DNA of 64,000 bases, taken from an uncultured Candidatus Saccharibacteria bacterium (GTDB taxonomy: Bacteria > Patescibacteriota > Minisyncoccia > Phycocordibacterales > UBA9973). The stretch spans positions 647 through 64,646 of the forward strand of contig CAYVDC010000008.1 in NCBI GenBank assembly GCA_964450735.1. The letters run 5' to 3'. This document shows, piece after piece, positions 18,060 through 55,751 of this stretch (its first letter is position 1; each line of letters begins with the position of its first letter). A model generated the notes under the pieces. That model saw only the letters and a program-made list of their open reading frames with translations. It had not been told where the DNA came from and ran no database searches. The position numbers and the translations under genes were made by a program.

Positions 18060-18482
18060 ATGAATATCAAGGTCAAACGACTCAAGCCTGAGGCAATACT
18101 TCCCAAATACGCGCATCCCGGAGATGTCGGTTTGGACATGTATGCTCTGGAAAGCATCACCATACCTCCGGGTGGACACTACCGTCTCTGGCACGGCTTT
18201 GCCTTGGAATTTCCTATTGGCTATGCGGCTACAGTGAAGGATAAATCAAGCATTTCTAAAGCAGGACTTCATACTATGGGCGGCGTTTTTGATGCCGGCT
18301 ATCGAGGCGAATACAACACACACCTCGTAAATCTTGGCAGCGAGCCGTATACCATTGAAGTAGGTGACAAAGTCTCCCAGCTCGTCATTTTCCCAGTTAT
18401 CATTGCAGAAATCGAGGAAACTGATACATTAAGTGAATCAAGCCGGGGCGAAGGAGCTTTTGGTTCGACGGGAAAGAAATAA
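18060..18482 (+). CDS. dut: dUTP pyrophosphatase
   Basis: AHPGDVGLD, GGVFDAGYRGE motifs; 140 aa. Confidence 0.85.
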   Translation: MNIKVKRLKPEAILPKYAHPGDVGLDMYALESITIPPGGHYRLWHGFALEFPIGYAATVKDKSSISKAGLHTMGGVFDAGYRGEYNTHLVNLGSEPYTIEVGDKVSQLVIFPVIIAEIEETDTLSESSRGEGAFGSTGKK

Positions 18483-20194
18483 TGCAACAACGATTAGAAC
18501 AACATATAAAAGAAGCACTAAAGACTCTCGGTATTGCCGAGGGCTCATTTTCTGTTGAGCATCCTGCAGATATCAAGAACGGCGACTACTCAACCAATGC
18601 TGCACTGGCTGTTTCAAAACAGGCGGGAAAAAATCCTCGCGAAGTTGCAGAAGCTTTGGTCGCCGAACTTTTAAATAAGAAAATTGAGCATGTAGAAGCG
18701 ATTGAGATGGCGGGTCCAGGATTCATTAACTTCCGACTATCTAAAGAATTTTTCGCTGATTCAATTTCTGAAATAAAAAATTCTCCTGAAACTTGGGGAA
18801 ACAATAATGCTGCAAATGGGAAAAAGATCATGGTTGAATATACTGATCCGAATCCGTTCAAGCCATTTCATATTGGTCACCTCATGACGAACGCAATCGG
18901 CGAATCCGTCGCGCGCATTTTCAATGCTTCAGGTGCCAATGTTGTCCGCGCAAACTATCAGGGAGATGTTGGCCTCCATGTAGCAAAAGCTATTTGGATG
19001 ATGCTCAAAAAAGGGAAAGGCGACACTGCTGCTCCGGCTGGCATACAGGCACAATACATTGGCGCTTGTTATTCAGAGGCTTCAAACGCATATGATGAGA
19101 ACCCAGAAGCAAAAGCTGAAATCGATGCAATTAACAAAAAAATCTACGAACGAAGCGATGCTGAAATCAATGATATTTATGATTGGGGACGAAAGGTAAC
19201 ACTTGAAGCATTTGAAGAAATTTACACTACGCTTGGAACAAAATTCAATCACTATTTCTTTGAGAGTGAAATGGCTCCGATCGGCGCGCAAATCGTTCGC
19301 GACAATGTCGGCACGGTTTTTTCAGAATCTGACGGCGCAATTGTTTTTCATGCCGAAGAGCATGATCCAAAACTCCACACTCGTGTTTTCATAACCAAGC
19401 AGGGCTTGCCGACTTATGAGACCAAGGAGATCGGTCTTACTACTAAGAAATTCGAAAAAGAGTCAGACCTCGATCTTTCAATTGTCGTAACTGCAATTGA
19501 ACAAGGGGAATATATGAAAGTGGTTCAGAAAGCCATTTCATTGCTGCACCCTGAACTTGAATCCCGCATGAAGCACATCACTCACGGTATGATGCGTTTT
19601 GCTTCTGGAAAAATGAGCTCACGAAAAGGAAATGTGGTTACGGGAGAATCCCTCATGAATGATGCCCGCGATGTTGTCTACGAAAAAATGGCTGATCGTG
19701 AATTTACCGGCGAGGAAAAAGAAACTATTGCTTCTCAGGTTGGTGTTGCGGCGCTTAAATATTCAATTCTCAAACAAGCACTTGGCGGGGATATTATCTA
19801 TGATTTTGAAAAATCAATTTCATTTGATGGTGATTCTGGCCCGTACCTCCAGTACACAACAGTTCGCGCAAGCGCGGTTTTGGAAAAAGGGAAGCGTGAA
19901 GGATTAGCGCCAAACGCACAGCTTCCAGAAAAGTGGGAAACAACAAACCTCGAAAAACATCTGTACCGTTTTCCAGAAATTGTTTTGCGCTCATACGAAC
20001 AGCTTGAGCCGCATCATATTGCAACGTATCTCACAGAACTTGGTTCACTATTTAACTCATTCTACGCAGATCATCAGATTGTAAACACTGAAGATGCCGC
20101 TTCTCCATACAAATTGGCTGTCACTGAAGCTTACTGTCAAACCATGAAAAATGGCTTGTATTTGTTGGGTATTTCAGTACCGGCAAAGATGTAG
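18482..20194 (+). CDS. argS: arginyl-tRNA synthetase
   Basis: PNPFKPFHIGH (HIGH) and KMSSRKGNVV (KMSK) class-I signatures; 570 aa. Confidence 0.9.
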   Translation: MQQRLEQHIKEALKTLGIAEGSFSVEHPADIKNGDYSTNAALAVSKQAGKNPREVAEALVAELLNKKIEHVEAIEMAGPGFINFRLSKEFFADSISEIKNSPETWGNNNAANGKKIMVEYTDPNPFKPFHIGHLMTNAIGESVARIFNASGANVVRANYQGDVGLHVAKAIWMMLKKGKGDTAAPAGIQAQYIGACYSEASNAYDENPEAKAEIDAINKKIYERSDAEINDIYDWGRKVTLEAFEEIYTTLGTKFNHYFFESEMAPIGAQIVRDNVGTVFSESDGAIVFHAEEHDPKLHTRVFITKQGLPTYETKEIGLTTKKFEKESDLDLSIVVTAIEQGEYMKVVQKAISLLHPELESRMKHITHGMMRFASGKMSSRKGNVVTGESLMNDARDVVYEKMADREFTGEEKETIASQVGVAALKYSILKQALGGDIIYDFEKSISFDGDSGPYLQYTTVRASAVLEKGKREGLAPNAQLPEKWETTNLEKHLYRFPEIVLRSYEQLEPHHIATYLTELGSLFNSFYADHQIVNTEDAASPYKLAVTEAYCQTMKNGLYLLGISVPAKM

Positions 20195-20699: not shown

Positions 20700-20893
20700 A
20701 AAAGCAGCACTGACGAGACCAATCATCTCTGAGCTCCGGCAAGAACGCTCGATCTGAGCAAGTAGACGCCGGCGGGCAGCCCGTTACAGCATTTAATAAG
20801 GTTCGGTTTTCCGGACAAAGTAAGGTGGTACCACGAGAGAAGCTCGTCCTTATCCAGTAAAGTAATTTATTGTATAAGGACGAGTTTTTATTT
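20700..20893 (+). promoter_or_regulatory. T-box leader (tRNA-sensing riboswitch) of ileS, with candidate promoter TTTACA-N17-TACTAT at 20668-20696
   Basis: AAGTAAGGTGGTACCACGAG at 20817-20836 matches the T-box consensus (AGGGTGGNACCGCG); terminator hairpin CTCGTCCTTA..TAAGGACGAG + TTTTT at 20844-20889 directly before the ileS start; ATC triplets in upstream stem region. Confidence 0.55.
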
Positions 20894-20895
20894 TT

Positions 20896-23800
20896 ATGGA
20901 AGAAAAAAATATGCAACAAGAAAAAAGCGAAGCAGCTCTCAAGGAAGAGCGCATTTTGGCGTTTTGGAGAGAGAACAATACTTTCCAAAAATCCCTTACT
21001 AAAGAGTCTCCAAAAGGAAACTACGTTTTTTATGATGGTCCTCCGTTTGCGACAGGACAGATGCACTACGGACATATTCTTGGAAGCACGGCCAAGGACT
21101 CGATCGGCCGTTATCAAACTATGCGCGGGTATCATGTACCTCGACGATGGGGTTGGGACTGTCACGGTTTGCCAATCGAAAACATTGTTGAAAAAGAATT
21201 GGGCATTGCCGGACACAAAGAGATCGAAGCATACGGCGTAGAAAAATTCGTCGAGTATGCTCGAAGCAAGGTTTTGCAATACGACAAAGACTGGGAACGG
21301 GGAGTAGAGCGCATCGGACGATGGGTGGATTTTAAAGGCGGCTACAAGACAATGGACAACACGTTTATTGAAAGTGTCTGGTGGGCACTCGGACAATTGC
21401 AGACGAAAGGATTGATTTACGAAGGCGTCCGCGTCCTCGCATATTGTTCACGCTGCGAAACTCCAATTGCGAATTCCGAAATCGCGATGGATAACAGCTA
21501 CAAAGACATCACTGATATTTCAGTGTATGCAAAGTTTGAGCTTGTTGACGAGCCGGGTACCTACTTTATTGCGTGGACGACAACACCATGGACGCTTCCG
21601 GGAAACTTCGCACTTGCAGCAAGTCCAGAATTCAACTATGTCAAAATAAAAATCGGCGATGCTTTTTACATACTCTCCAAAGAGCGGCTTTCAGTCATCA
21701 AGGATGCCTATGAAATCGTTTCGGAAGGTGTGGATATTTTTGGTAAGGCGTATAAGCCCCTGTTTGATTATTTTACAGATAAGGAAATTGAAAATAAGGA
21801 AAAAGCATGGAAGGTCTACGCAGCTGGGTATGTTACCAACGACGCAGGAACTGGAATCGTGCACATCGCACCTGGATACGGTGAAGAAGACATGGAACTG
21901 GCAAAGCGAGAAAATATTCCATTCATGCATCACGTGTTGAACGATGGAACATTCGCCGAAGTCGTTCGCGATTTCATAGGTCTTTCAGTAAAGCCAAAGT
22001 CCGACGAAAAAGACGGACACCAGAAAACTGATATCGAAATCATCAAGCATTTGGCGCACCAAGGATATTTATTTGGCAAAGAAAAGATTGTTCACTCGTA
22101 CCCTCACTGCATGCGCTGCGACACGCCGATCATTTACTACGCACTTCCATCATGGTTCGTAAACATTCAGAAAGTAAAACCGGAAATCATAGAGAATGCA
22201 AAAGAGATGAATTGGATTCCGTCACACTTGAAAGACGGGCGATTCAAGAATAACCTCGAAGGAGCTCCAGACTGGACGATTTCTCGAAATCGCTACTGGG
22301 CCACACCGCTTCCGTTTTGGAAATCTCCTGAAGGCAAACTCATGACAATTTCATCGCTTGATGATTTGAAATCGAAAGCCAAGAAATCTGGCAACAAGTA
22401 TTTTGCTATGCGTCACGGTTATGGTCAGCACATGGATGCTGGCGTTGTTTCCGGACTTGATCATGATTCATACCATCTGACAGAAGAAGGCCGAAAGGGA
22501 ATTCTCGCTCAGGCTGAAAATCTCAAGAAAGATGGTATTACGATGATCATCGCTTCGCCGCTTATTCGAACGCAAGAAACGGCAAAAATGGCTGCTGAAA
22601 TTCTCGGCGTATCTGCGGATTCGATTATTACCGACAAGCGCCTCCGCGAATATGATTTCGGCGAATGGGATGGCAAGCCATGGCAGGAGTATGTGAACTA
22701 CCGTAAGGATCACATTGCTTCATACGACGAACCACTCGGCGGGTCTTCGCTCCTCGAAACGAAAAAGCGCTTCGGTGAATTTATGTATGAGCTTGAAGAA
22801 AAATATCAGAACGAACGCATACTGATTGTAACGCACGGCATTTTCTTTGAAACCGTTGCAGCTGTTGTTGTAGGCGCTGATAATGCGAAGTCGCTCGATA
22901 TTCTCTTTACGCAATTCACTGGCAATCGAATCCAGCCTGCGGAAATCCGAGAAATCCCATTTGTTCCGCTTCCTCATAATCACAACTATGAACTTGATCT
23001 GCATCGTCCATACATCGACGCTATTAAATTGGTTGATGAAAAGGGCACGATTTATGAGCGTATCCCAGAAGTGATCGACTGCTGGTTTGAATCAGGTTCA
23101 ATGCCGTTCGCGCAAGACCACTATCCATTCGAGCGTCCACACTGGAAGGAAGAAAATTTCCCTGCGGGATTTGTGGCTGAATACATCGCTCAAACTCGAA
23201 CATGGTTCTACTACACGCATGCTGTTTCAACCATGCTTTTTGGAGCTGCACCGTTCAAAAATGTCGTAACGACAGGAACACTTCGCGCAGAAGATGGTCA
23301 GAAAATTTCCAAGTCAAAAAAGAATTATCCTGATCCATGGATCTTTATCGACAAATATGGCGTAGATCCACTTCGCATGTACCTTATGTCAGGTCCGCTC
23401 ATGAAAGGGGAAGATGCAAACTTTTCTGAAAAAACTGTTGCCGAAATTGCCAATAAGATAATTGGCCGTCTTGGAAACGTGCTTTCGTTCTACGAACTCT
23501 ACCGAGATACTTCACTTGAACAGAAAGCATTTTCAAATCCAACTAATGTGCTCGATATTTGGGTACTTTCACGGTTGAATCAATTAGTTTCTGGAGTCAC
23601 TGAAGGAATGGAAGCGTACGACATGGCGGAAGCAACTCGACCGTTTGATTTATTTGTTGATGATCTTTCGACTTGGTATCTTCGCCGATCACGTGATCGT
23701 GTGAAAGAAGGGGAAGCTGAAGCAAAACAAACTCTTTATACCGTTTTGAAAACTGTGGCAACAGTGCTTGCTCCGTTCGCGCCGTTTACTGCCGAAGATA

Positions 23801-24312
23801 TGTGGCTCCGACTCAAAAATGAGTCTGATGTTGAAAGCGTGCATCTGGCAAATTGGCCGTCTGAACTCGGTGCTACTTCGACTGAAGTTCTCGAAGCAAT
23901 GAAGATAACCCGTGACATTTGCGCTGCTGGACATATGCTTCGTCAAAAAGCGAACATCGTTGTTCGTCAACCACTCGCAGCATTGTTTGTACCAGAAATT
24001 CCAGGCAAAGAATATGTGGAAATTTTGAAGGACGAACTTAACGTGAAAGAAATTCAACAAGGTGAAATAGTCTCATTAAATGAGACTATTTCACCGGAGC
24101 TCAAACTCGAAGGTGAATACCGCGATCTCGTCCGCTCGATTCAAGAACTTCGCAAGCAGACTGGTTTGCAGCCAAGCGATCGAATAACGATTACACTTAC
24201 AACTGAAGCTGAAAAATTGGTCGCTCTATTCATGGATGAATTCAAAAAGACAGTTCAGGCAGATCAGGTTTCCTTCGAAGCGATTGAAGCGCCTAAACTT
24301 GCTAAAATATAA
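20896..24312 (+). CDS. ileS: isoleucyl-tRNA synthetase (type 2) with inserted histidine-phosphatase (PGAM-like) domain
   Basis: PPFATGQMHYGHIL (HIGH), KISKSKKN (KMSKS), CWFESGSMPFAQ, editing-domain motifs; insert with RHG..SPLIRTQETA..EYDFGEWDG..VTHG at about nt 22380-22990. Confidence 0.9.
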   Translation: MEEKNMQQEKSEAALKEERILAFWRENNTFQKSLTKESPKGNYVFYDGPPFATGQMHYGHILGSTAKDSIGRYQTMRGYHVPRRWGWDCHGLPIENIVEKELGIAGHKEIEAYGVEKFVEYARSKVLQYDKDWERGVERIGRWVDFKGGYKTMDNTFIESVWWALGQLQTKGLIYEGVRVLAYCSRCETPIANSEIAMDNSYKDITDISVYAKFELVDEPGTYFIAWTTTPWTLPGNFALAASPEFNYVKIKIGDAFYILSKERLSVIKDAYEIVSEGVDIFGKAYKPLFDYFTDKEIENKEKAWKVYAAGYVTNDAGTGIVHIAPGYGEEDMELAKRENIPFMHHVLNDGTFAEVVRDFIGLSVKPKSDEKDGHQKTDIEIIKHLAHQGYLFGKEKIVHSYPHCMRCDTPIIYYALPSWFVNIQKVKPEIIENAKEMNWIPSHLKDGRFKNNLEGAPDWTISRNRYWATPLPFWKSPEGKLMTISSLDDLKSKAKKSGNKYFAMRHGYGQHMDAGVVSGLDHDSYHLTEEGRKGILAQAENLKKDGITMIIASPLIRTQETAKMAAEILGVSADSIITDKRLREYDFGEWDGKPWQEYVNYRKDHIASYDEPLGGSSLLETKKRFGEFMYELEEKYQNERILIVTHGIFFETVAAVVVGADNAKSLDILFTQFTGNRIQPAEIREIPFVPLPHNHNYELDLHRPYIDAIKLVDEKGTIYERIPEVIDCWFESGSMPFAQDHYPFERPHWKEENFPAGFVAEYIAQTRTWFYYTHAVSTMLFGAAPFKNVVTTGTLRAEDGQKISKSKKNYPDPWIFIDKYGVDPLRMYLMSGPLMKGEDANFSEKTVAEIANKIIGRLGNVLSFYELYRDTSLEQKAFSNPTNVLDIWVLSRLNQLVSGVTEGMEAYDMAEATRPFDLFVDDLSTWYLRRSRDRVKEGEAEAKQTLYTVLKTVATVLAPFAPFTAEDMWLRLKNESDVESVHLANWPSELGATSTEVLEAMKITRDICAAGHMLRQKANIVVRQPLAALFVPEIPGKEYVEILKDELNVKEIQQGEIVSLNETISPELKLEGEYRDLVRSIQELRKQTGLQPSDRITITLTTEAEKLVALFMDEFKKTVQADQVSFEAIEAPKLAKI

Positions 24313-24314
24313 GT

Positions 24315-24896
24315 ATGAAAAAAGTATTCATTATTCACGGCTTTGGAGGAATTCCTAATGGCGGGTGGCTGCCATGGCTTATGGTTGAGCTTGGCAAAAA
24401 AGGGATCTATGCGTGCGCCCTTGCAATGCCAGATACTGATAATCCTAATCTTCAAAAATGGATGGCGGAAATCGATCACGCGATCGGTGGTGATTATGAA
24501 CATACCTATTTCGTTGCACATAGTTTAGGTGGCGCCGCCTTGCTTCGCTACCTTGAAGCCCTAGAGGGTGGTAAAAAAATCGGCGGAGCGCTTCTCGTGT
24601 CCTCTGTAATCGATCCGCTTGATACAGAAAATCCAGAAAGCAGATTTCGTATGATCGATTCTTTTCTTCTGCCTGAAATTGACTTCACACAAGTAAAAGG
24701 GAAAGCAGATCGCTTAATTGTAATGCATGGTACCGCTGATGTAACAGTTCCTTTTGTCCAAGCAGAAAAACTTGCTGCAGGTTTGGAATGTGAATTGATT
24801 TCAGTTGAAGGAGGGACACATTTTAGTCAACGAACTCCACCAATCTATTACGAATTACCTGAAGCACTAGAAGCGATAACAACTATGCTTAAATAA
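24315..24896 (+). CDS. alpha/beta-hydrolase, RBBP9/YdeN (COG3545) family serine hydrolase
   Basis: IIHGFGG N-terminus, VAHSLGG nucleophile elbow, about 190 aa. Confidence 0.6.
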   Translation: MKKVFIIHGFGGIPNGGWLPWLMVELGKKGIYACALAMPDTDNPNLQKWMAEIDHAIGGDYEHTYFVAHSLGGAALLRYLEALEGGKKIGGALLVSSVIDPLDTENPESRFRMIDSFLLPEIDFTQVKGKADRLIVMHGTADVTVPFVQAEKLAAGLECELISVEGGTHFSQRTPPIYYELPEALEAITTMLK

Positions 24897-32104: not shown

Positions 32105-35100
32105 ATGGAAGGCCTACCTAAAAACAGCTCAGGAACATCGAATGAGAGGAAGTCAGATACCCAATCGTTTTCAGACAAATTAAAAGAAAAATCAAAATCG
32201 GTTTTTTCTTCAATAGGTAAAGCGGGGCGCAGGACATTCCTGGCTGGGGCACTTGCTACGACTGCGCTAACTACTGTCGCTCAGGTAAAAGTTGCGCCTA
32301 AAGAAAATCCTACTGAACAGATGAGTCTTGCAGAACTCAAGGAATTGGCACAAACAGATCCTTTCACTGTTCTGAAAGCCGTAGAAACATTAGATTCGCT
32401 TGAACAAAAAGAAGTCCTTCCAATCATGGAAGAAGCACTCCTCGTGAATGAACCAAGCGCTCTTTTGTATTTCTTTTCAGAGAACAAAAATTATCCTGAT
32501 ATATATGATGCAGACATGGTCAACCGAGCATTTGAAGCATCGGTAGCCAAAATACAAAAGGGTGACAAGGATGAAGAATGCGTAAGAATTTTAGTTAATG
32601 CGGGCTTGCTGGCAGACAACCCTAATGGAGATGACATCTTCAAGGCTGCCCTGAAAAACGTATCGCCAGCAGTAATCATAGATGAAGAATATCGTTCAGC
32701 GTATTTGAAATACCCGCATGCAGCAGAATTGGTGAAACCATATGTAAAGAAAGCCATTGAAGGACTTGTACAGAAGGGACATTGGGACGCTATCGGTCCA
32801 TCTCTAAAAAGTTTTATAGATGAACCGTGGGCAGAGCCAATACTCAAAGAATGGAATAAAAACAATATGGGCGTCACTTCTTTTTATGGCGATGTGCTTA
32901 TGTCAAAACCGTTTGGGCAGGAAATAGTAGTCGATGCACTCAAAAAAGATCCAATTTCTGTTCAAAGTTTGAGTATATCGCAAGACAAGATGTCGCCGGC
33001 CCTCGAGAGTCAGGTCATTGAGGCACTTCAGTATTCGTTAGAAGACGAGAACTTTGAAAAACTAAATTCCTATGCCTTTATTGACCAAGGTCGTGTTTTT
33101 CGTGCTGTTCCTGGAGGAGATACTTTGTATAAAAAGTTGGCATCAAAGCTTGCGACATACCTACCATCGCTTGTTTTGGATAATATTGTTGATTCAAAAT
33201 TTGACTGGCTTGGAGAAGAAACAAAAAAAGAACTGTTACAGATGGCAGCTGAATCTGCTGATGCAAGGTATGTTTTCAAACATGCGCAGTTGTTCTCAGC
33301 TGAGCCGTATGGAAGAAAAGTCATTGAAAAAGCGGCACAGGAAACTCCAGGCGAGGTTATTAATCATGCTACTCAGCTTATACCAAGGGAGGCATACGTC
33401 GACATAATCCGCGATGCGGTAAATCTCGTAGTAGTAAGTGATCCTGATCGAATTTTATATAACCCGATTGTGATTGACCTTATTGCTGTAGATAGAAAAG
33501 AGCACGATGTATTGCTAGAAAAAGTTGTCAGAGCAACAGCTGAGCATTCAGGTGGGGAGCATACTATTGTGTCGCAATATAAGGAATTCGCAGAAAAACC
33601 ATACGCAAAAGAAATCCTCGAGTCGGCTCTCTTGCAAATGCCGCAGGCAGTTGTCAGCGCAACAGGGAAAGTAAAAGGGGAAATGGAATCTAGCCAAAAC
33701 CCTTACATACAAAAACTCTTTTCTCTTTCAAACGATCCTTATATCGCTGAAGAGTCGGAATACTTTACCAGAAATGCTATTTATTCAGCGCTGCAATACA
33801 TTACTGAAAAAGATGTTACGGTAGACGCGTCTTTTGCAGAACCAGCCAACCTGTTCCGCGCGTATATGTATACAAAGAAATCATCCAACCCGATCGGGTT
33901 GAATGGCGTGGAAAAGAACCTGCGTTTGACTTCAAATTCCTTGATTCAAAAAATTAACCGCATGCATGACGAACCTGATTCAGTTCGATTTGCATCAGTG
34001 TCCGAGTATGACCCAGAAATATTGTACACGCTGGCAACATACGGAGAGCAAGAAGCTTTTACTTCCACATTCAACGGGCTTTTCAACAGAACGATCGACG
34101 GCCTGAAGAAAGAACAAAAAAACGGATATACATTTCTCGAAGAGATGTCGTTTATGCAAGCCCGCACTTTTATACGGGAATGTGCTTCATATAATCGTCT
34201 TGATGAATTCCTGAACACAATGGCTAAAGAGGACCAGAGAAAACTCCTCGAATGGTTTATTTCCGGAATCAATAGCGACAAAGAAGTTCTTACCGAGGGT
34301 GTGGTAATTGCAGACGTTATTTCTTCAGTCGAGGACAAGAGTATTCTCGATGTTTTTGGAGCTACCATACAAAAGAAATATGCAGAGGGAGTCGCTTCAA
34401 AAAACCGCTCAATCGAAGTGGCATATGGATTGCTTGGCACATTGTATGCGCAGCAAACAGGGAATACTGACGCACAATTTGGAACCGAAGGACATATATA
34501 CCATATTGAACAGCTCGGAGAACTTTCCAAGGATTCCTTGTTTGGCCCCAACAAGACAAGTATTCATCGATACTATTTTTACAATGACTCAGACGGTCAA
34601 GGATCGTTCCAAAGTTTTACAAGCCAGTACGCGCACGATCCAAGCTGGAATTTTGAAGACAAAGGTGAGTATGTGGTAGTGTCTTCGGTAGCAGGAGAAA
34701 AAATAAAAATTTTTGCCAATAAGCCATTTGCTGAGAATGGAAATGAGATCGACTCGATTCTGGGCTCAAAGAATACGCCGATCAATGTCATTGTGCATCG
34801 AGGACACAGCTTCCACGCTGAGAAAACAGTTGCTGAAATACCAAGCACCGCAGCTCTCGTTTCTCTCGGTTCTTGCGGCGGATATCGTTTGCTCGACGGA
34901 GTGCTCAATCACTCGCCGAGTGCGCATGTAATTTCAACCAAAGGAACCGGAACAATGAAAGTGAATGACCCGATCCTGAAAGCAATCAATGAAGAAATTC
35001 GCGCAGGACATTCGATTAAATGGGCTGAGCTATGGACGAAATTTGAAGCGACACTAGGGGATAATCCTAACTTCAAAAATTACGTTCCCCCTAATAAAAA

Positions 35101-35155
35101 TTTAGGTTTGATGTTCATGAGTGCGTACAGAAATTTGATTAAAGAGAAAAATTAA
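32105..35155 (+). CDS. large (1016 aa) hypothetical protein with twin-arginine-like signal peptide and alpha-helical repeat body
   Basis: GRRTFLAGALATTALTTVAQV resembles Tat signal (RRxFL + h-region); recurring ..PY..E(I/V)(L/I).. helical repeats; distinct C-terminal about 170-aa domain (HRGHSFH..GSCGGYRLLDG). Confidence 0.5.
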   Translation: MEGLPKNSSGTSNERKSDTQSFSDKLKEKSKSVFSSIGKAGRRTFLAGALATTALTTVAQVKVAPKENPTEQMSLAELKELAQTDPFTVLKAVETLDSLEQKEVLPIMEEALLVNEPSALLYFFSENKNYPDIYDADMVNRAFEASVAKIQKGDKDEECVRILVNAGLLADNPNGDDIFKAALKNVSPAVIIDEEYRSAYLKYPHAAELVKPYVKKAIEGLVQKGHWDAIGPSLKSFIDEPWAEPILKEWNKNNMGVTSFYGDVLMSKPFGQEIVVDALKKDPISVQSLSISQDKMSPALESQVIEALQYSLEDENFEKLNSYAFIDQGRVFRAVPGGDTLYKKLASKLATYLPSLVLDNIVDSKFDWLGEETKKELLQMAAESADARYVFKHAQLFSAEPYGRKVIEKAAQETPGEVINHATQLIPREAYVDIIRDAVNLVVVSDPDRILYNPIVIDLIAVDRKEHDVLLEKVVRATAEHSGGEHTIVSQYKEFAEKPYAKEILESALLQMPQAVVSATGKVKGEMESSQNPYIQKLFSLSNDPYIAEESEYFTRNAIYSALQYITEKDVTVDASFAEPANLFRAYMYTKKSSNPIGLNGVEKNLRLTSNSLIQKINRMHDEPDSVRFASVSEYDPEILYTLATYGEQEAFTSTFNGLFNRTIDGLKKEQKNGYTFLEEMSFMQARTFIRECASYNRLDEFLNTMAKEDQRKLLEWFISGINSDKEVLTEGVVIADVISSVEDKSILDVFGATIQKKYAEGVASKNRSIEVAYGLLGTLYAQQTGNTDAQFGTEGHIYHIEQLGELSKDSLFGPNKTSIHRYYFYNDSDGQGSFQSFTSQYAHDPSWNFEDKGEYVVVSSVAGEKIKIFANKPFAENGNEIDSILGSKNTPINVIVHRGHSFHAEKTVAEIPSTAALVSLGSCGGYRLLDGVLNHSPSAHVISTKGTGTMKVNDPILKAINEEIRAGHSIKWAELWTKFEATLGDNPNFKNYVPPNKNLGLMFMSAYRNLIKEKN

Positions 35156-51928: not shown

Positions 51929-52520
51929 ACAGGCGTGTCACGTTTTCGGAGATAGGAACCGGGAACATCGATACTGGCGCGCCTCGGATCGATCATTGAA
52001 AATTGCATATTGATATATTCTCCGTATCTTGGAGAAAAAAGATTTTACAGTTTTCTCTGTGTCATCCTCGGCATAGACGATGATGTTTGTTTCAAAAACT
52101 TTTATTATTTTTTGAAACGATAGGCGTCATTGGTGATTGGTCCGATAGCATCGCGTATGTCTTGCAGCGTATGTGATGCACGCTTTCGTTCTATACATAT
52201 ATATGTATGAGATGGAAGTATATCGGCCCTGTCGACAAGGCAGATATCTTTTTGGATCGATTCGTCGAAACAAAAAGGTTCAGCGGGTTTGATTTTTCCC
52301 GCTATCAAAAAACATCCGGAGCAAATACATGGTTGTGTCTTCTCTAATTAAGAAACCATTTCCATGTTTTGCATATGCTTGCCCGAGGCAAGCATAATGC
52401 ACACTTTTACGTTGTCGAACGTAATACATTAAGTGCATATCACACAAATAGATTGATGTCAGAGATACTCTGATTTTATTATCCGTGTTCTCGCATCCTT
52501 TCTATAGTTTTCAAATTATT

Positions 52521-55500
52521 ATGACTACATTCATCAAATCAAGCGCTGCTAAGGCAGTCGTAGGTTTGTTGGCTCTTGCGGTTCTCGCGATTGCATCTTC
52601 AGCATCAGCTGCATATACATTCACACAGAACCTCACAGTCGGTTCAAACTCAGCTGAAGTTAAACAGCTTCAGATGTTCTTGAACACCAACGGATTTACA
52701 GTTTCTACAACTGGTGCAGGTTCACCAGGAATGGAAAGCAACTACTTCGGAACAAAGACTCGAACAGCTCTCGCAGCTTTCCAGGCAGCTAAGGGTATCT
52801 CACCTGCAGCTGGTTACTTTGGTCCTTTGACTCGAACTACAATCAACGCTTGGGCAGGTTCAACAACTCTCCCAGCTGGTTGTACAACAGCTTCAGGATA
52901 CAGCTCAACAACAGGTCAGCCATGTTCAACAGGCTCAACACTTGTTCCTGGCTGTACTTCAACAACAGGCTACAGCTCAACAACAGGTCTCTCATGCGCA
53001 GGTGGTTCAACACCAGCTCAGACAGGTCCTGTAACAGCTTCACTCTCAACAACTAACCCTGCTTCAGGCGTTATTGTTACAGGTCAGGCTAATGCTAAGC
53101 TTGTAGATGTCGTGTTCGCAGGTGCAGGAACAGTTAACTCTGTTACTCTCAAGCGATCAGGTATCTCAACTCAGAGCACACTTCAGAACGTATACCTCTA
53201 CGATGGCGTTAATCGCTTGACAGACGGTTACTCATTCAACAACAACGGTGACTTGACTATGAACAACCTTAACTTGGCTGTTAATGGATCACGAACAATC
53301 TCAGTTGTTGCTGATGTATCTACAGTTTTAGGAGGTGCTTTGTCAGGTCAGACAATTGCTGTTGCTCTCACATCATTTACATCTGGAACAACTGTTTCAT
53401 CTGTAAACGTTCAGGGTAATACAATGTCAGTTGCTGATGGTACTAACACTCTTGCTTCAGTCTCATTTACAAGCGCTCAGTCATTTGGCGGTGCTACTGT
53501 AAATGCTGGAACATCTTCATACACAGTTTACCGACAGGCTATTCAGGTTAATACTCGAACTGTCTGGCTTAAGGCTGCTAACTTCCGAATCGTCGGCTCA
53601 GCTCCAACAGGTGCTGTAGCTAACGCTGGATTGTTTGTTGATGGTGTCAAGGTTGGAAACAATGCTTCAATGACAATGGCAAATGGTACTAACTACTTGT
53701 CATTTGATCTTTCATCAATGCCTTTCGCTCTTACAACTGGTGGTCACACTGTTGAAGTTCGAGCTGATATCGTTGGTGGTGCTAACTACAACTTTACAGT
53801 ATCACTCCAGCAGGCTTCAGATCTTATGATCTTGGATCCTCAGGTTGGAGTAAATATCGCTATTTCTCCATTCACTAGCTACGCTGGTGGACAGGTAAAC
53901 ATTGGTGCAGGTTCAGCTACATTTACAGTTGACCCAGCATTTAGCGCAATGACAAATGTAACTGGCGGTGCTTCAAATGCAGCTATCGCTAAGTTCAAGA
54001 TTCGTGGTTACGGTGAAGATGTGAAAGTTACACAGCTTACAGTAACTCCAGTCTTGTCAAGCACAACACCTACACAGTCATGCCCAACAGCTTGCGGACT
54101 CCAGAATGTAACACTTTACTTCAACGGTTCACAGGTTGGTTCACAGCAGAACTGGACAACAGGTGCTTTGACATTTAACCTTGGTTCACAGCTCATCATT
54201 CCTGCTAACACAGATAGCGTTCTTGAAGTTCGTGCTGATCTCCGCACAACTGCTGGCGCTAACTACACTGCTGGAACTGTTTCTGCAAACCTCGGTTCAG
54301 GAACAGCTGAAGGATTTACTTCACACACTTCAGTTCCAACTCCTGCTGTTACTGGTACATCATTGACAATCCAGACTGGACTCCTTGCTGTTTCTGCAAA
54401 CGCAGGCTACACAAGCCAGAACATCAGCCCTAATACTGCTGGTGCTAAGATTGGATCATTTGTTTTCCAGAACCAGAGCTCATCTGAATCAGTTCGTGTA
54501 ACTTCAGTTCAGGTTGCTCTCGCTTTCACAGGTGCACAGAGCTTGACAAACTTCTCAGGTCTTCGAACTTCAGAAGCTTCTGGTTCAGGCTCAACTCCAG
54601 TTCAGCCACAGGCATCAAACACATTCTCAGTAGACTTCACTCTTGCTCCAGGTGCTACAAAGGTGCTTGATATCTTTGCTGATGCTGGTTCTGTGACAAC
54701 TGGTACTATTGCAACAACTATCACTACTACTTCAATTGGTTCATCAAGCAACGTCTCACAGACAATCACAAGTGTTGCTGGTCAGACAATCACAATTGTT
54801 AGCGGTACTGTTGCTACTCCAACAGTTCTCTCACAGTCTTCAACTCAGTCACAGTACATCGCAGCTGGTACAACAGTTGGTACTACTAATGGTTCAAAAG
54901 CATCATTCAACTTTGTTGGAAGCAACGGTGCTTCAACAATCAGCGAACTTAAAGTTACTGTAACTTCTGGTACAGCTAACCAGACTCCAGTATCTTCAGT
55001 TACTGTTGGTGGTGTCACTGCTCCTGTAGTTGCAACTTCAACTACAACAGGTGATGCTTACTTGACTAACCTCAACATCGCAGTTCCTAACGGTGCAGGT
55101 GGTGCTAACGTTGACGTGTTCTTGAATTACACTGCAGTTGGTTCAACTGGTGTAACTTCAGGTACAACTGCTACTGCAGCTATCACATATGTTCGTTCAA
55201 CTTCTGGTGGAACAACATCAACAACTACTCCAAACGTTTCAGCTCCAACTATGACTGTAGTAGCTTCAAAGCCACTCGTCTCTGTTAATTCAACACAGCA
55301 GACAGGTCTTATCCTCGGTGCTGAAAACAAGATTGGTGAAGTAACAATTTCTGCTGATGCAGCAGGTAACATTGGTCTCAAGACCCTTGTATTCAATGTT
55401 GGTGCTTCAGGTCTTAGCGCTGCTGTTGATATCAACGATACTACTCCTGTTCTTCGATCAGGTGGAGTACCGGTTACTGGTGTTACTTGTGCTGCTGGTT

Positions 55501-55751
55501 CTGCTACAGGACCAATCACATGTACTTTCACTGGTACAACAGGTGCTACAATCACACCTGGAACTCCTGTTACATACAGCTTGTTTGCTACTGTTAACAA
55601 CTCAGCAGCTTCTGGTTCTACAGCTTCTATTTCAACTCAGGTTGATCAGAGCGGATTCCAGTGGGCTGATGTTGCTGGTAACAGCACAACACTCCGATCA
55701 GGAGCTCTTGTATACAACTTCCCAACAAATAGCTACTCAATCCGTCAATAA
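52521..55751 (+). CDS. giant cell-surface protein: signal/anchor, peptidoglycan-binding (PG_binding_1-like) domain, Cys-containing short repeats, long Thr/Ser/Gly/Val-rich beta region
   Basis: EVKQLQMFLNTNGF..YFGTKTRTALAAFQ..YFGPLT matches PG-binding domain pattern; tandem CT(T/S)xxGYSSTTG motifs; start reset to MTTFIKS. Confidence 0.6.
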   Translation: MTTFIKSSAAKAVVGLLALAVLAIASSASAAYTFTQNLTVGSNSAEVKQLQMFLNTNGFTVSTTGAGSPGMESNYFGTKTRTALAAFQAAKGISPAAGYFGPLTRTTINAWAGSTTLPAGCTTASGYSSTTGQPCSTGSTLVPGCTSTTGYSSTTGLSCAGGSTPAQTGPVTASLSTTNPASGVIVTGQANAKLVDVVFAGAGTVNSVTLKRSGISTQSTLQNVYLYDGVNRLTDGYSFNNNGDLTMNNLNLAVNGSRTISVVADVSTVLGGALSGQTIAVALTSFTSGTTVSSVNVQGNTMSVADGTNTLASVSFTSAQSFGGATVNAGTSSYTVYRQAIQVNTRTVWLKAANFRIVGSAPTGAVANAGLFVDGVKVGNNASMTMANGTNYLSFDLSSMPFALTTGGHTVEVRADIVGGANYNFTVSLQQASDLMILDPQVGVNIAISPFTSYAGGQVNIGAGSATFTVDPAFSAMTNVTGGASNAAIAKFKIRGYGEDVKVTQLTVTPVLSSTTPTQSCPTACGLQNVTLYFNGSQVGSQQNWTTGALTFNLGSQLIIPANTDSVLEVRADLRTTAGANYTAGTVSANLGSGTAEGFTSHTSVPTPAVTGTSLTIQTGLLAVSANAGYTSQNISPNTAGAKIGSFVFQNQSSSESVRVTSVQVALAFTGAQSLTNFSGLRTSEASGSGSTPVQPQASNTFSVDFTLAPGATKVLDIFADAGSVTTGTIATTITTTSIGSSSNVSQTITSVAGQTITIVSGTVATPTVLSQSSTQSQYIAAGTTVGTTNGSKASFNFVGSNGASTISELKVTVTSGTANQTPVSSVTVGGVTAPVVATSTTTGDAYLTNLNIAVPNGAGGANVDVFLNYTAVGSTGVTSGTTATAAITYVRSTSGGTTSTTTPNVSAPTMTVVASKPLVSVNSTQQTGLILGAENKIGEVTISADAAGNIGLKTLVFNVGASGLSAAVDINDTTPVLRSGGVPVTGVTCAAGSATGPITCTFTGTTGATITPGTPVTYSLFATVNNSAASGSTASISTQVDQSGFQWADVAGNSTTLRSGALVYNFPTNSYSIRQ

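Follow-up and report, generated by a model that had tools for sequence, protein, structure and literature searches.

Architecture of the ileS gene product

The stretch of DNA analysed here (64,000 nucleotides of contig CAYVDC010000008.1, assembly GCA_964450735.1, from an uncultured Candidatus Saccharibacteria bacterium; hereafter, the window) carries an ileS gene whose product is a type-2 isoleucyl-tRNA synthetase (IleRS) with a histidine-phosphatase domain nested within it. An earlier note, made from the letters of the window alone, had described this product as a single continuous polypeptide with IleS motifs on either side of an insert, and so it proved: the open reading frame is uninterrupted, the HIGH-type signature lies upstream of the insert and the KMSKS-type loop downstream, and there is no break in GC content across the insert region. 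The features of the gene are as follows (positions in the window; residue numbers refer to the window protein).

20896 to 24312, + strand: ileS, type-2 IleRS with nested phosphatase, 1138 residues, uninterrupted open reading frame
21064 to 21075, + strand: HIGH-type signature HYGH, residues 57-60 (H57, Y58, G59 and H60 invariant in 116 homologues)
21574 to 21891, + strand: CP1 motifs WTTTPWTLPGN (residues 227-237) and GTGIVHIAPGYGEED (residues 318-332), located by sequence
22297 to 22320, + strand: WATPLPFW strand, residues 468-475, the last core element ahead of the insertion (sequence and alignment with 8C8U, see below)
22321 to 22395, + strand: N-side host hairpin and linker, residues 476-500, comprising the native helix SLDDLKSKA and then KKSGN (predicted local distance difference test, pLDDT, 92-93)
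22396 to 22965, + strand: His_Phos_1 domain, a histidine phosphatase, residues 501-690
22966 to 22995, + strand: C-side linker PLPHNHNYEL, residues 691-700, leading back to the hairpin (P693, H694 and N695 at least 90% conserved; pLDDT 92)
22996 to 23019, + strand: DLHRPYID, residues 701-708, where the IleRS core restarts (sequence and alignment with 8C8U)
23302 to 23316, + strand: KMSKS-type loop KISKS, residues 803-807 (K803, S805, K806 and S807 invariant in homologues)
23554 to 24282, + strand: Anticodon_1 (residues 887-1027) and C-terminal DUF5915 (residues 1059-1129), Pfam matches

All the class I signatures (HIGH, KMSKS and the CP1 motifs) are present, and the whole protein scores 800.1 bits against TIGR00392, the NCBIfam equivalog model for IleRS, for which the cut-off is 621.4. 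The best solved relative is IleRS2 from Priestia megaterium (PDB code: 8C8U), with 673 bits versus 258-281 bits for IleRS1 structures; the resemblance to 8C8U and 8C8V extends over the whole synthetase body (phmmer E 7e-201, Foldseek E 5e-73), and takes in the HIGH, KMSKS and CP1 editing motifs, Anticodon_1 and the DUF5915 C-terminus. We regarded as type 2 an enzyme nearest to the IleRS2 or eukaryote-like synthetases that has the type-2 C-terminus and is without the C-terminal zinc-binding domain of IleRS1; the window protein, with 8C8U as its nearest structure and DUF5915 at its C-terminus, belongs there. Within the CP1 region, the columns W227-P235, G318-G320, H323 and D332 are invariant in the homologue alignment. 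They fall in the WTTTPWTLPGN and GTGIVH..D motifs, which we take to be the CP1 editing-site motifs of IleRS, and, judged by its sequence, the editing domain is intact.

The insertion point and its linkers

About 190 extra residues had been claimed between WATPLPFW and DLHRPYID, over positions 22380-22990. The claim is borne out: 225 residues separate the two motifs in the window protein versus 26-53 in insert-less relatives, corresponding to a net insertion of ~200 residues, and the proposed coordinates fall within a few codons of the domain and its linkers taken together (22381-22995). In the insert-less relatives, the segment follows the pattern W-x-C-x-x-C...(I/V)GS(I/L)xEL...SG-xxxx-DLHRPYID...C-x-x-C, that is, a Cys4 knuckle hairpin, the short turn of which reads ELSGVDVKDLHRP in one of them (P0176); in the window protein, the order is instead WKSPEGKLMTISSLDDLKSKAKKSGN, the phosphatase, PLPHNHNYEL and DLHRPYID. 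Comparison of the two patterns therefore places the entry of the domain in the tip of the zinc-knuckle hairpin, at its conserved 'SG' turn. Residues 459-465 of 8C8U span what residues 478-677 of the query fill, some five residues having been replaced, and the host hairpin is the surface hairpin of the second Rossmann half.

The linkers themselves are well conserved: Lys497, Ser498, Gly499 and Asn500 of KKSGN are each at least 90% conserved, and both KKSGN and PLPHN have pLDDT values of at least 88 in the predicted model. Linkers that are both conserved and confidently modelled suggest that the domain would be held in a fixed orientation rather than on a floppy tether. The fate of the knuckle is more varied: both Cys pairs are kept in 50 of the 116 insert-bearing proteins and lost in the remaining 66, including the window protein. 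Thus, whereas 8C8U lacks the ~200-residue phosphatase and has cysteines on both sides (WEC... and TCPVC), the window protein has none, and the Cys4 (presumed zinc) knuckle is absent from it altogether (22321-22350 and 23017-23067).

Identity of the inserted domain

The only Pfam match within residues 476-700 is His_Phos_1 (PF00300), which covers residues 505-667 with 93.8 bits (gathering score 21.7) and cuts the tRNA-synt_1 match in two. A hidden Markov model (HMM) search had been named by the earlier note as a check on the histidine-phosphatase identity, and the E-value of this match (1.4e-26) upholds it. Other sequence searches agree with the assignment, and the insert has the alpha/beta fold with a cap sub-domain that characterizes branch 1 of the histidine phosphatases. 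HMM, fold and residue evidence (the last set out in the next section) together support the conclusion that the insert is a branch-1 histidine-phosphatase domain within a single IleRS polypeptide.

The domain had been called a PGAM-like histidine phosphatase; of this description, the branch-1 assignment stands, and the likeness to a mutase does not. For a cofactor-dependent phosphoglycerate mutase (dPGM), we looked to the NCBIfam cut-offs and to a domain of ~250 residues with a C-terminal tail: the insert scores 68.3, 32.8 and 19.7 bits against cut-offs of 225, 316 and 320, respectively, and has ~190 residues versus the ~250 of the mutases. It is, therefore, a phosphatase-type member of the family (PspA/PhoE/CobC-like, ~190 residues), and phosphoglycerate mutase is excluded. 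The identities of individual phosphatases were likewise rejected, namely PspA (51.9 bits; cut-off 350), the alpha-ribazole phosphatase CobC (67.9 bits; cut-off 162.9) and SixA (28.9 bits; cut-off 74.5), and the best NCBIfam match, the mycobacterial RNase H/acid phosphatase PRK07238, falls far under its cut-off of 326.

The top structural neighbours of the insert are free-standing metabolic phosphatases with a closed cap. The branch-1 enzymes compared were PspA (4IJ5), glucosyl-3-phosphoglycerate phosphatase (6S2Q), PhoE (1H2E), the riboflavin-pathway HFP (9MMH) and CobC (6E4B); they share only 20-24% identity with the insert, are free-standing where it is nested, and differ from it at the pocket Asn, which is Met here. 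The domain is acidic (isoelectric point 5.65, net charge about -6), and its N-side linker is basic. An intein or other mobile insertion was also considered and rejected, as there is no Hint/intein or transposase domain and the insert has been kept in place across hundreds of species. No further His_Phos gene was found in the window.

Catalytic residues and selection

Residue conservation was assessed in alignments of 116-121 close homologues, and in a divergent set of 106 domain copies. The motifs reported in the earlier note (RHG, SPLIRTQET, EYDFGEWDG and IVTHG) are all present in the insert, and supply the following residues.

22411 to 22419, + strand: RHG, residues 506-508, with R506 and the nucleophile H507 (invariant in 121 of 121 close homologues and present in 102-103 of 106 divergent copies)
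22432 to 22434, + strand: M513, at the phosphate-pocket Asn position of RHGExExN (Asn in 101 of 116, Met in 14 of 116, these being the window sub-clade)
22567 to 22569, + strand: R558, second phosphate-pocket Arg, in SPLIR (SPLIRTQET, residues 554-562), invariant
22648 to 22650, + strand: E585, presumed proton donor, in EYDFGEWDG (residues 585-593), invariant in 121 homologues (Glu in 98 and Asp in 4 of the 106 divergent copies)
22834 to 22836, + strand: H647, second catalytic His, in IVTHG (residues 644-648), invariant (104 of 106 divergent copies)

The window protein thus retains the whole branch-1 catalytic core (Arg and His of RHG, second Arg, Glu and second His). Indeed, the only invariant columns of the insert among the close homologues are Arg506, His507, Gly532, Ser554, Arg558, Glu585 and His647, which, by sequence, are the Arg-His, Arg, Glu, His catalytic set and two structural residues. 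The pentad is exact in 96 of the 106 divergent copies, and four more replace Glu by Asp; a handful are degenerate (P0162, P0203, P0204 and P0150). Mean pairwise identity is 40% for the insert, as against 75-80% for the Rossmann halves of the core. The conservation of the catalytic residues indicates selection for catalysis. Relative to the closest genomes, the dN/dS ratio is lower for the insert (0.03-0.06) than for the core (0.06-0.13).

The phosphate-pocket Asn of RHGExxxN is not found in the window protein: its sub-clade has RHGYGQHM in place of the usual RHGExExN, and GGSS in place of the usual GGES (Ser617, 22744-22746). From the sequences, these replacements at Met513 and Ser617 may represent a shift of specificity in the sub-clade. 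Even so, no part of the protein is better conserved than the insert within this sub-clade: it has 86% identity to its counterpart at locus L002 versus 69-74% elsewhere.

Distribution and further insertion sites

Alignment with related genomes had been proposed as the way to learn whether the insertion is lineage-wide, and the answer is affirmative. In a collection of 5.8 billion proteins, PF00300 is present in all 120 of the best homologues (58-87% identity; 1130-1200 residues), which come from NCBI, ENA, JGI and Logan assemblies and, where named, belong to Nomurabacteria, Pacebacteria or Patescibacteria. A scan of GTDB, at one genome per species, with the junction peptide SGNxY[FL][VA]MRH gave 575 confirmed loci, the titles of which include Paceibacterota, Nomura-, Kaiser-, Zambryski- and Campbellbacteria, Parcubacteria and Minisyncoccia. 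Among the 150 best IleRS relatives drawn from 1.84 billion representatives clustered at 50% identity, 100 contain the domain, down to ~36% overall identity; in the other 50, only 26-53 residues lie between the flanking motifs. An assembly chimera or a frameshift was rejected, given that the same architecture recurs in hundreds of independent assemblies, and that the reading frame is continuous and the GC content smooth. The insertion is genuine and lineage-wide.

Among the divergent representatives, the phosphatase occupies two further sites, the permutations being explicit from the order of the BLAST segments, and it is in some cases duplicated or accompanied by other modules. With the zinc-knuckle hairpin, past query residue 475, as site 1, the arrangements are as follows.

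Site 2, between the DxWFxSG motif and KMSKS, query residues 745-756: P0182, P0240, P0228 and P0227, for example
Site 3, past KMSKS where the anticodon-binding domain starts, query residues 870-885: P0206, P0185, P0256 and P0211, for example
P0153: phosphatase copies at sites 1 and 3
P0240 and P0228: phosphatase copies at sites 2 and 3
P0171: tandem pair of phosphatases at site 1
P0211: PF06821 serine hydrolase at site 2, phosphatase at site 3
P0227: GNAT and phosphatase at site 2
P0244: at 1859 residues the largest, with GNAT at site 1, phosphatase at site 2 and ~200 residues without assignment after the GNAT
P0052 and P0076: extra C-terminal HD domain

P0206, whose family is named Candidatus Abawacabacteria or Gracilibacteria, has an ordinary Cys4 hairpin in the site-1 position. 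The domain is present in the eight clusters nearest to it (68-88% identity) and absent from its next relatives (62-63%, 'Gracilibacteria'); by sequence, the site-3 phosphatase of this group is an independent insertion in a second class of Patescibacteria. When compared with PDB entries, the GNAT of P0227 matched generic acetyltransferases only, with no specific similarity to MccE/RimL or to tRNA-acetylating toxins. The genome neighbourhood of P0211 contains PurH, DHFR, NadE and an aldolase.

Relation to known systems

Aminoacyl-tRNA synthetases (aaRSs) are among the most studied of enzymes, and globular domains in the loops of their catalytic domains are familiar: the CP1 editing domain, the leucine-specific domain of LeuRS and the INS domain of ProRS are of this kind, and all act on the aminoacyl ester or the tRNA. 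To our knowledge, the domains nested in aaRS catalytic cores have hitherto been editing or tRNA-binding modules; we know of none of these three with a histidine-phosphatase fold, and of no obvious role for a phosphomonoesterase in editing chemistry. Other bifunctional proteins contain His_Phos_1, namely PRK07238, the MutT1 Nudix-phosphatase (3FJY and 9CXX), PFK-2/FBPase-2 and tau55 of TFIIIC (2YN0), but these are end-to-end fusions with other partners, in contrast to the nested insertion of the window IleRS. A curated precedent for an IleRS with an extra enzymatic domain is NCBIfam NF040702 ('ileS_w_GNAT'); the window protein, however, scores only 305 bits against its cut-off of 1999 and has no GNAT match in Pfam. 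P0227 and P0244, which combine GNAT and His_Phos, are also under this cut-off.

The earlier note knew of no aaRS described with such a phosphatase, and neither do the sources we consulted: full-text literature searches found no aaRS described as having a histidine-phosphatase domain, nor is a phosphatase mentioned in a 2026 survey of 96,219 IleRS sequences, in which domain architectures were annotated. A review of azaindanes contained nothing relevant to an IleRS-phosphatase. What is new here is the phosphatase as a nested aaRS domain; nested accessory domains of aaRSs, and decorated IleRSs (NF040702), were already known.

Proposed function

The whole is best explained, and we think probably so, by a bifunctional IleRS with an active nested phosphatase that is functionally tied to the synthetase. 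The synthetase part would charge tRNA-Ile as usual, and the phosphatase part, working by the mechanism of its family, would hydrolyse a phosphomonoester or a terminal phosphoanhydride: His507 would be transiently phosphorylated, Arg506, Arg558 and His647 would hold the phosphate, and Glu585 would donate a proton. The substrate is most likely to be a small molecule, rather than a protein or the body of an RNA, because the domain keeps the cap sub-domain of metabolite phosphatases, is acidic, and is much larger than the open protein phosphatases of the SixA type. That the activity would be tied to IleRS, and the domain not be a random passenger, is suggested by the recurrence of IleRS as host, at three sites and in at least two classes of Patescibacteria. 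The tie might lie in a nucleotide product such as adenosine monophosphate or pyrophosphate, in a tRNA end that bears a phosphate, in an inhibitor, or in co-regulation; our leading guess, and a tentative one, is that the phosphatase acts on a nucleotide-type compound that the synthetase uses or releases. In the sub-clade of the window, ileS lies behind a T-box leader (see below), and the dosage of the phosphatase would therefore rise with that of IleRS when tRNA-Ile is uncharged.

Several observations weigh against this proposal. The insert misses every NCBIfam equivalog cut-off, and the substrate cannot be read from homology. The replacement of the pocket Asn by Met, together with GGSS, could mean altered or reduced catalysis in the sub-clade of the window. 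The dN/dS ratios are rough, dS being saturated. The use of three insertion ports would be just as readily explained if any permissive loop were good enough, a reading that would favour mere tethering over precise coupling. Additionally, the close insert-less relatives P0127 and P0169 have FtsW, L21, SecE, NusG and RNase H as ileS neighbours, with no free-standing His_Phos among them.

A more specific alternative, which we hold to be rather unlikely, is that the domain is a cis-acting guard or repair module for the synthetase's own ligands, like the GNAT, serine-hydrolase and HD modules of its sister IleRSs. Its targets would be a 3' end of tRNA-Ile left with a 2'/3'-phosphate or a pyrophosphate by nucleases or toxins, or a phosphate-bearing mimic of isoleucyl-adenylate directed against IleRS. 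Precedents for such roles are at hand and speak for it: insertions in aaRS cores, such as CP1 and ProRS INS, act on the ligands of the enzyme itself, MccE-type GNATs and HIT phosphoramidases detoxify aminoacyl-adenylate mimics, and HD hydrolases strip pyrophosphate from the CCA ends of tRNA. The recurrence of hydrolase and transferase modules at three ports of the catalytic body of IleRS, the basic N-side linker, and the rigidity and conservation of the linkers all point the same way. However, the surface of the domain is acidic overall, its closest folds are closed-cap metabolite phosphatases, the GNAT of P0227 is generic and without similarity to MccE/RimL or tRNA-acetylating toxins, and a need for tRNA-end repair in IleRS alone has no explanation. 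The broader form of this idea is of similarly low likelihood: the IleRS of Patescibacteria might be a docking platform, with three ports in and around its catalytic body at which small enzymes are acquired time and again as a hitherto unrecognised cis-acting layer of protection or quality control. The modules concerned would be the histidine phosphatase (the commonest), a GNAT acetyltransferase, a YdeN-type serine hydrolase and an HD hydrolase, and they might, for example, destroy adenylate-mimic toxins directed at IleRS, or restore phosphorylated ends of tRNA-Ile.

Somewhat less likely still is an unrelated housekeeping phosphatase (for phosphoserine, a sugar phosphate, a nucleotide or pyrophosphate) riding on an essential, constitutive gene with no link to aminoacylation. 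This would suit the small genomes of Patescibacteria, the free-standing metabolic phosphatases found as top structural neighbours, the three permissive loops, with which precise placement would be uncritical, and the lack of any other His_Phos gene in the window; but the host is always IleRS in the data examined, including the independent event in another class, the linkers are conserved, and a nested insertion is far harder to achieve than an end-to-end fusion if mere co-expression is at stake. Distinctly improbable is a catalytically silent pseudo-phosphatase that replaces the zinc knuckle, senses a ligand or serves a structural purpose, and tunes IleRS allosterically. The loss of the Cys4 knuckle from 66 of 116 insert-bearing proteins, that of the window included, the change of the pocket Asn to Met, and the few degenerate copies are in keeping with it; however, pseudo-enzymes normally lose catalytic residues, and here all five, the proton-donor Glu among them, are unchanged throughout the 121 close homologues, 96 of the 106 distant copies have the exact pentad, and knuckle and insert occur together in 50 of the 116 proteins. 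Finally, a chimeric assembly, a frameshift artefact or a dPGM serving glycolysis could be entertained only on the grounds that the sequence is of metagenome type and that the Pfam family name includes PGAM; with hundreds of independent assemblies, a continuous reading frame, smooth GC content and dPGM scores far too low, we give these next to no credence.

An unrelated and, as judged by its sequence, apparently active phosphomonoesterase has thus become a fixed part of an essential synthetase across a major uncultured lineage, in no fewer than 575 genomes at the species level. Its re-acquisition at other positions and in another class argues for a selected link between the charging of isoleucine and a phosphate-ester substrate. 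Current models, whether of translation or of the physiology of Patescibacteria, do not predict such a link, and its study could bring to light a new moonlighting or protective role for an aaRS. There are practical consequences too: these proteins are often annotated simply as 'class I tRNA ligase family protein', and a phosphatase hidden in ileS would be missed in the metabolic reconstruction of reduced genomes.

The T-box leader and the gene neighbourhood

The features flanking ileS are the following.

18482 to 20194, + strand: argS (Pfam), the upstream context of ileS
20701 to 20854, + strand: short T-box leader upstream of ileS (Rfam RF00230; 61 bits, gathering score 93, E 1e-12)
24315 to 24896, + strand: YdeN-like serine hydrolase gene (PF06821; Pfam, and PDB code 1uxo with E 2.7e-22), starting 2 nucleotides past the ileS stop

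Of the 80 related loci examined, 63 share the order argS-ileS. Between the two genes, the window has a spacer of ~700 nucleotides that is low in GC content (0.36-0.42), and the T-box lies within it. The leader keeps the conserved GGUGGUACC core and is missing most of stem I, 74 model positions of which are replaced by 5 nucleotides. The same T-box stands upstream of ileS in four close relatives, at loci L002 (2344-2513), L004 (2358-2501), L007 (2311-2470) and L008 (2317-2468). With 44-70 bits, neither these matches nor that of the window reach the gathering score of 93; their E-values go down to 4e-13. It was not detected at four more distant ileS loci from Paceibacteria. A T-box as compact as this in Patescibacteria may be of interest for itself.

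Downstream of ileS, the PF06821 gene is present in only 7 of the 80 related loci, those of the closest relatives. The same family is also nested within the IleRS catalytic domain of P0211. Its product matches YdeN and RBBP9 only, proteins without assigned function, and a functional link between it and the IleRS-phosphatase is uncertain. At locus L083, an RNase H gene (2168-2626) lies directly upstream of the insert-less IleRS P0169; that the best NCBIfam match of the insert is an RNase H/acid phosphatase is probably a coincidence. No other class Ia synthetase is present in the window with which the insert could be compared. Elsewhere in the window, two very large open reading frames on the + strand encode proteins of 1016 residues (32105-35155; no Pfam match) and 1088 residues (52485-55751; only an N-terminal peptidoglycan-binding domain), and both may belong to the cell-surface proteins that are typical of episymbiotic Patescibacteria.

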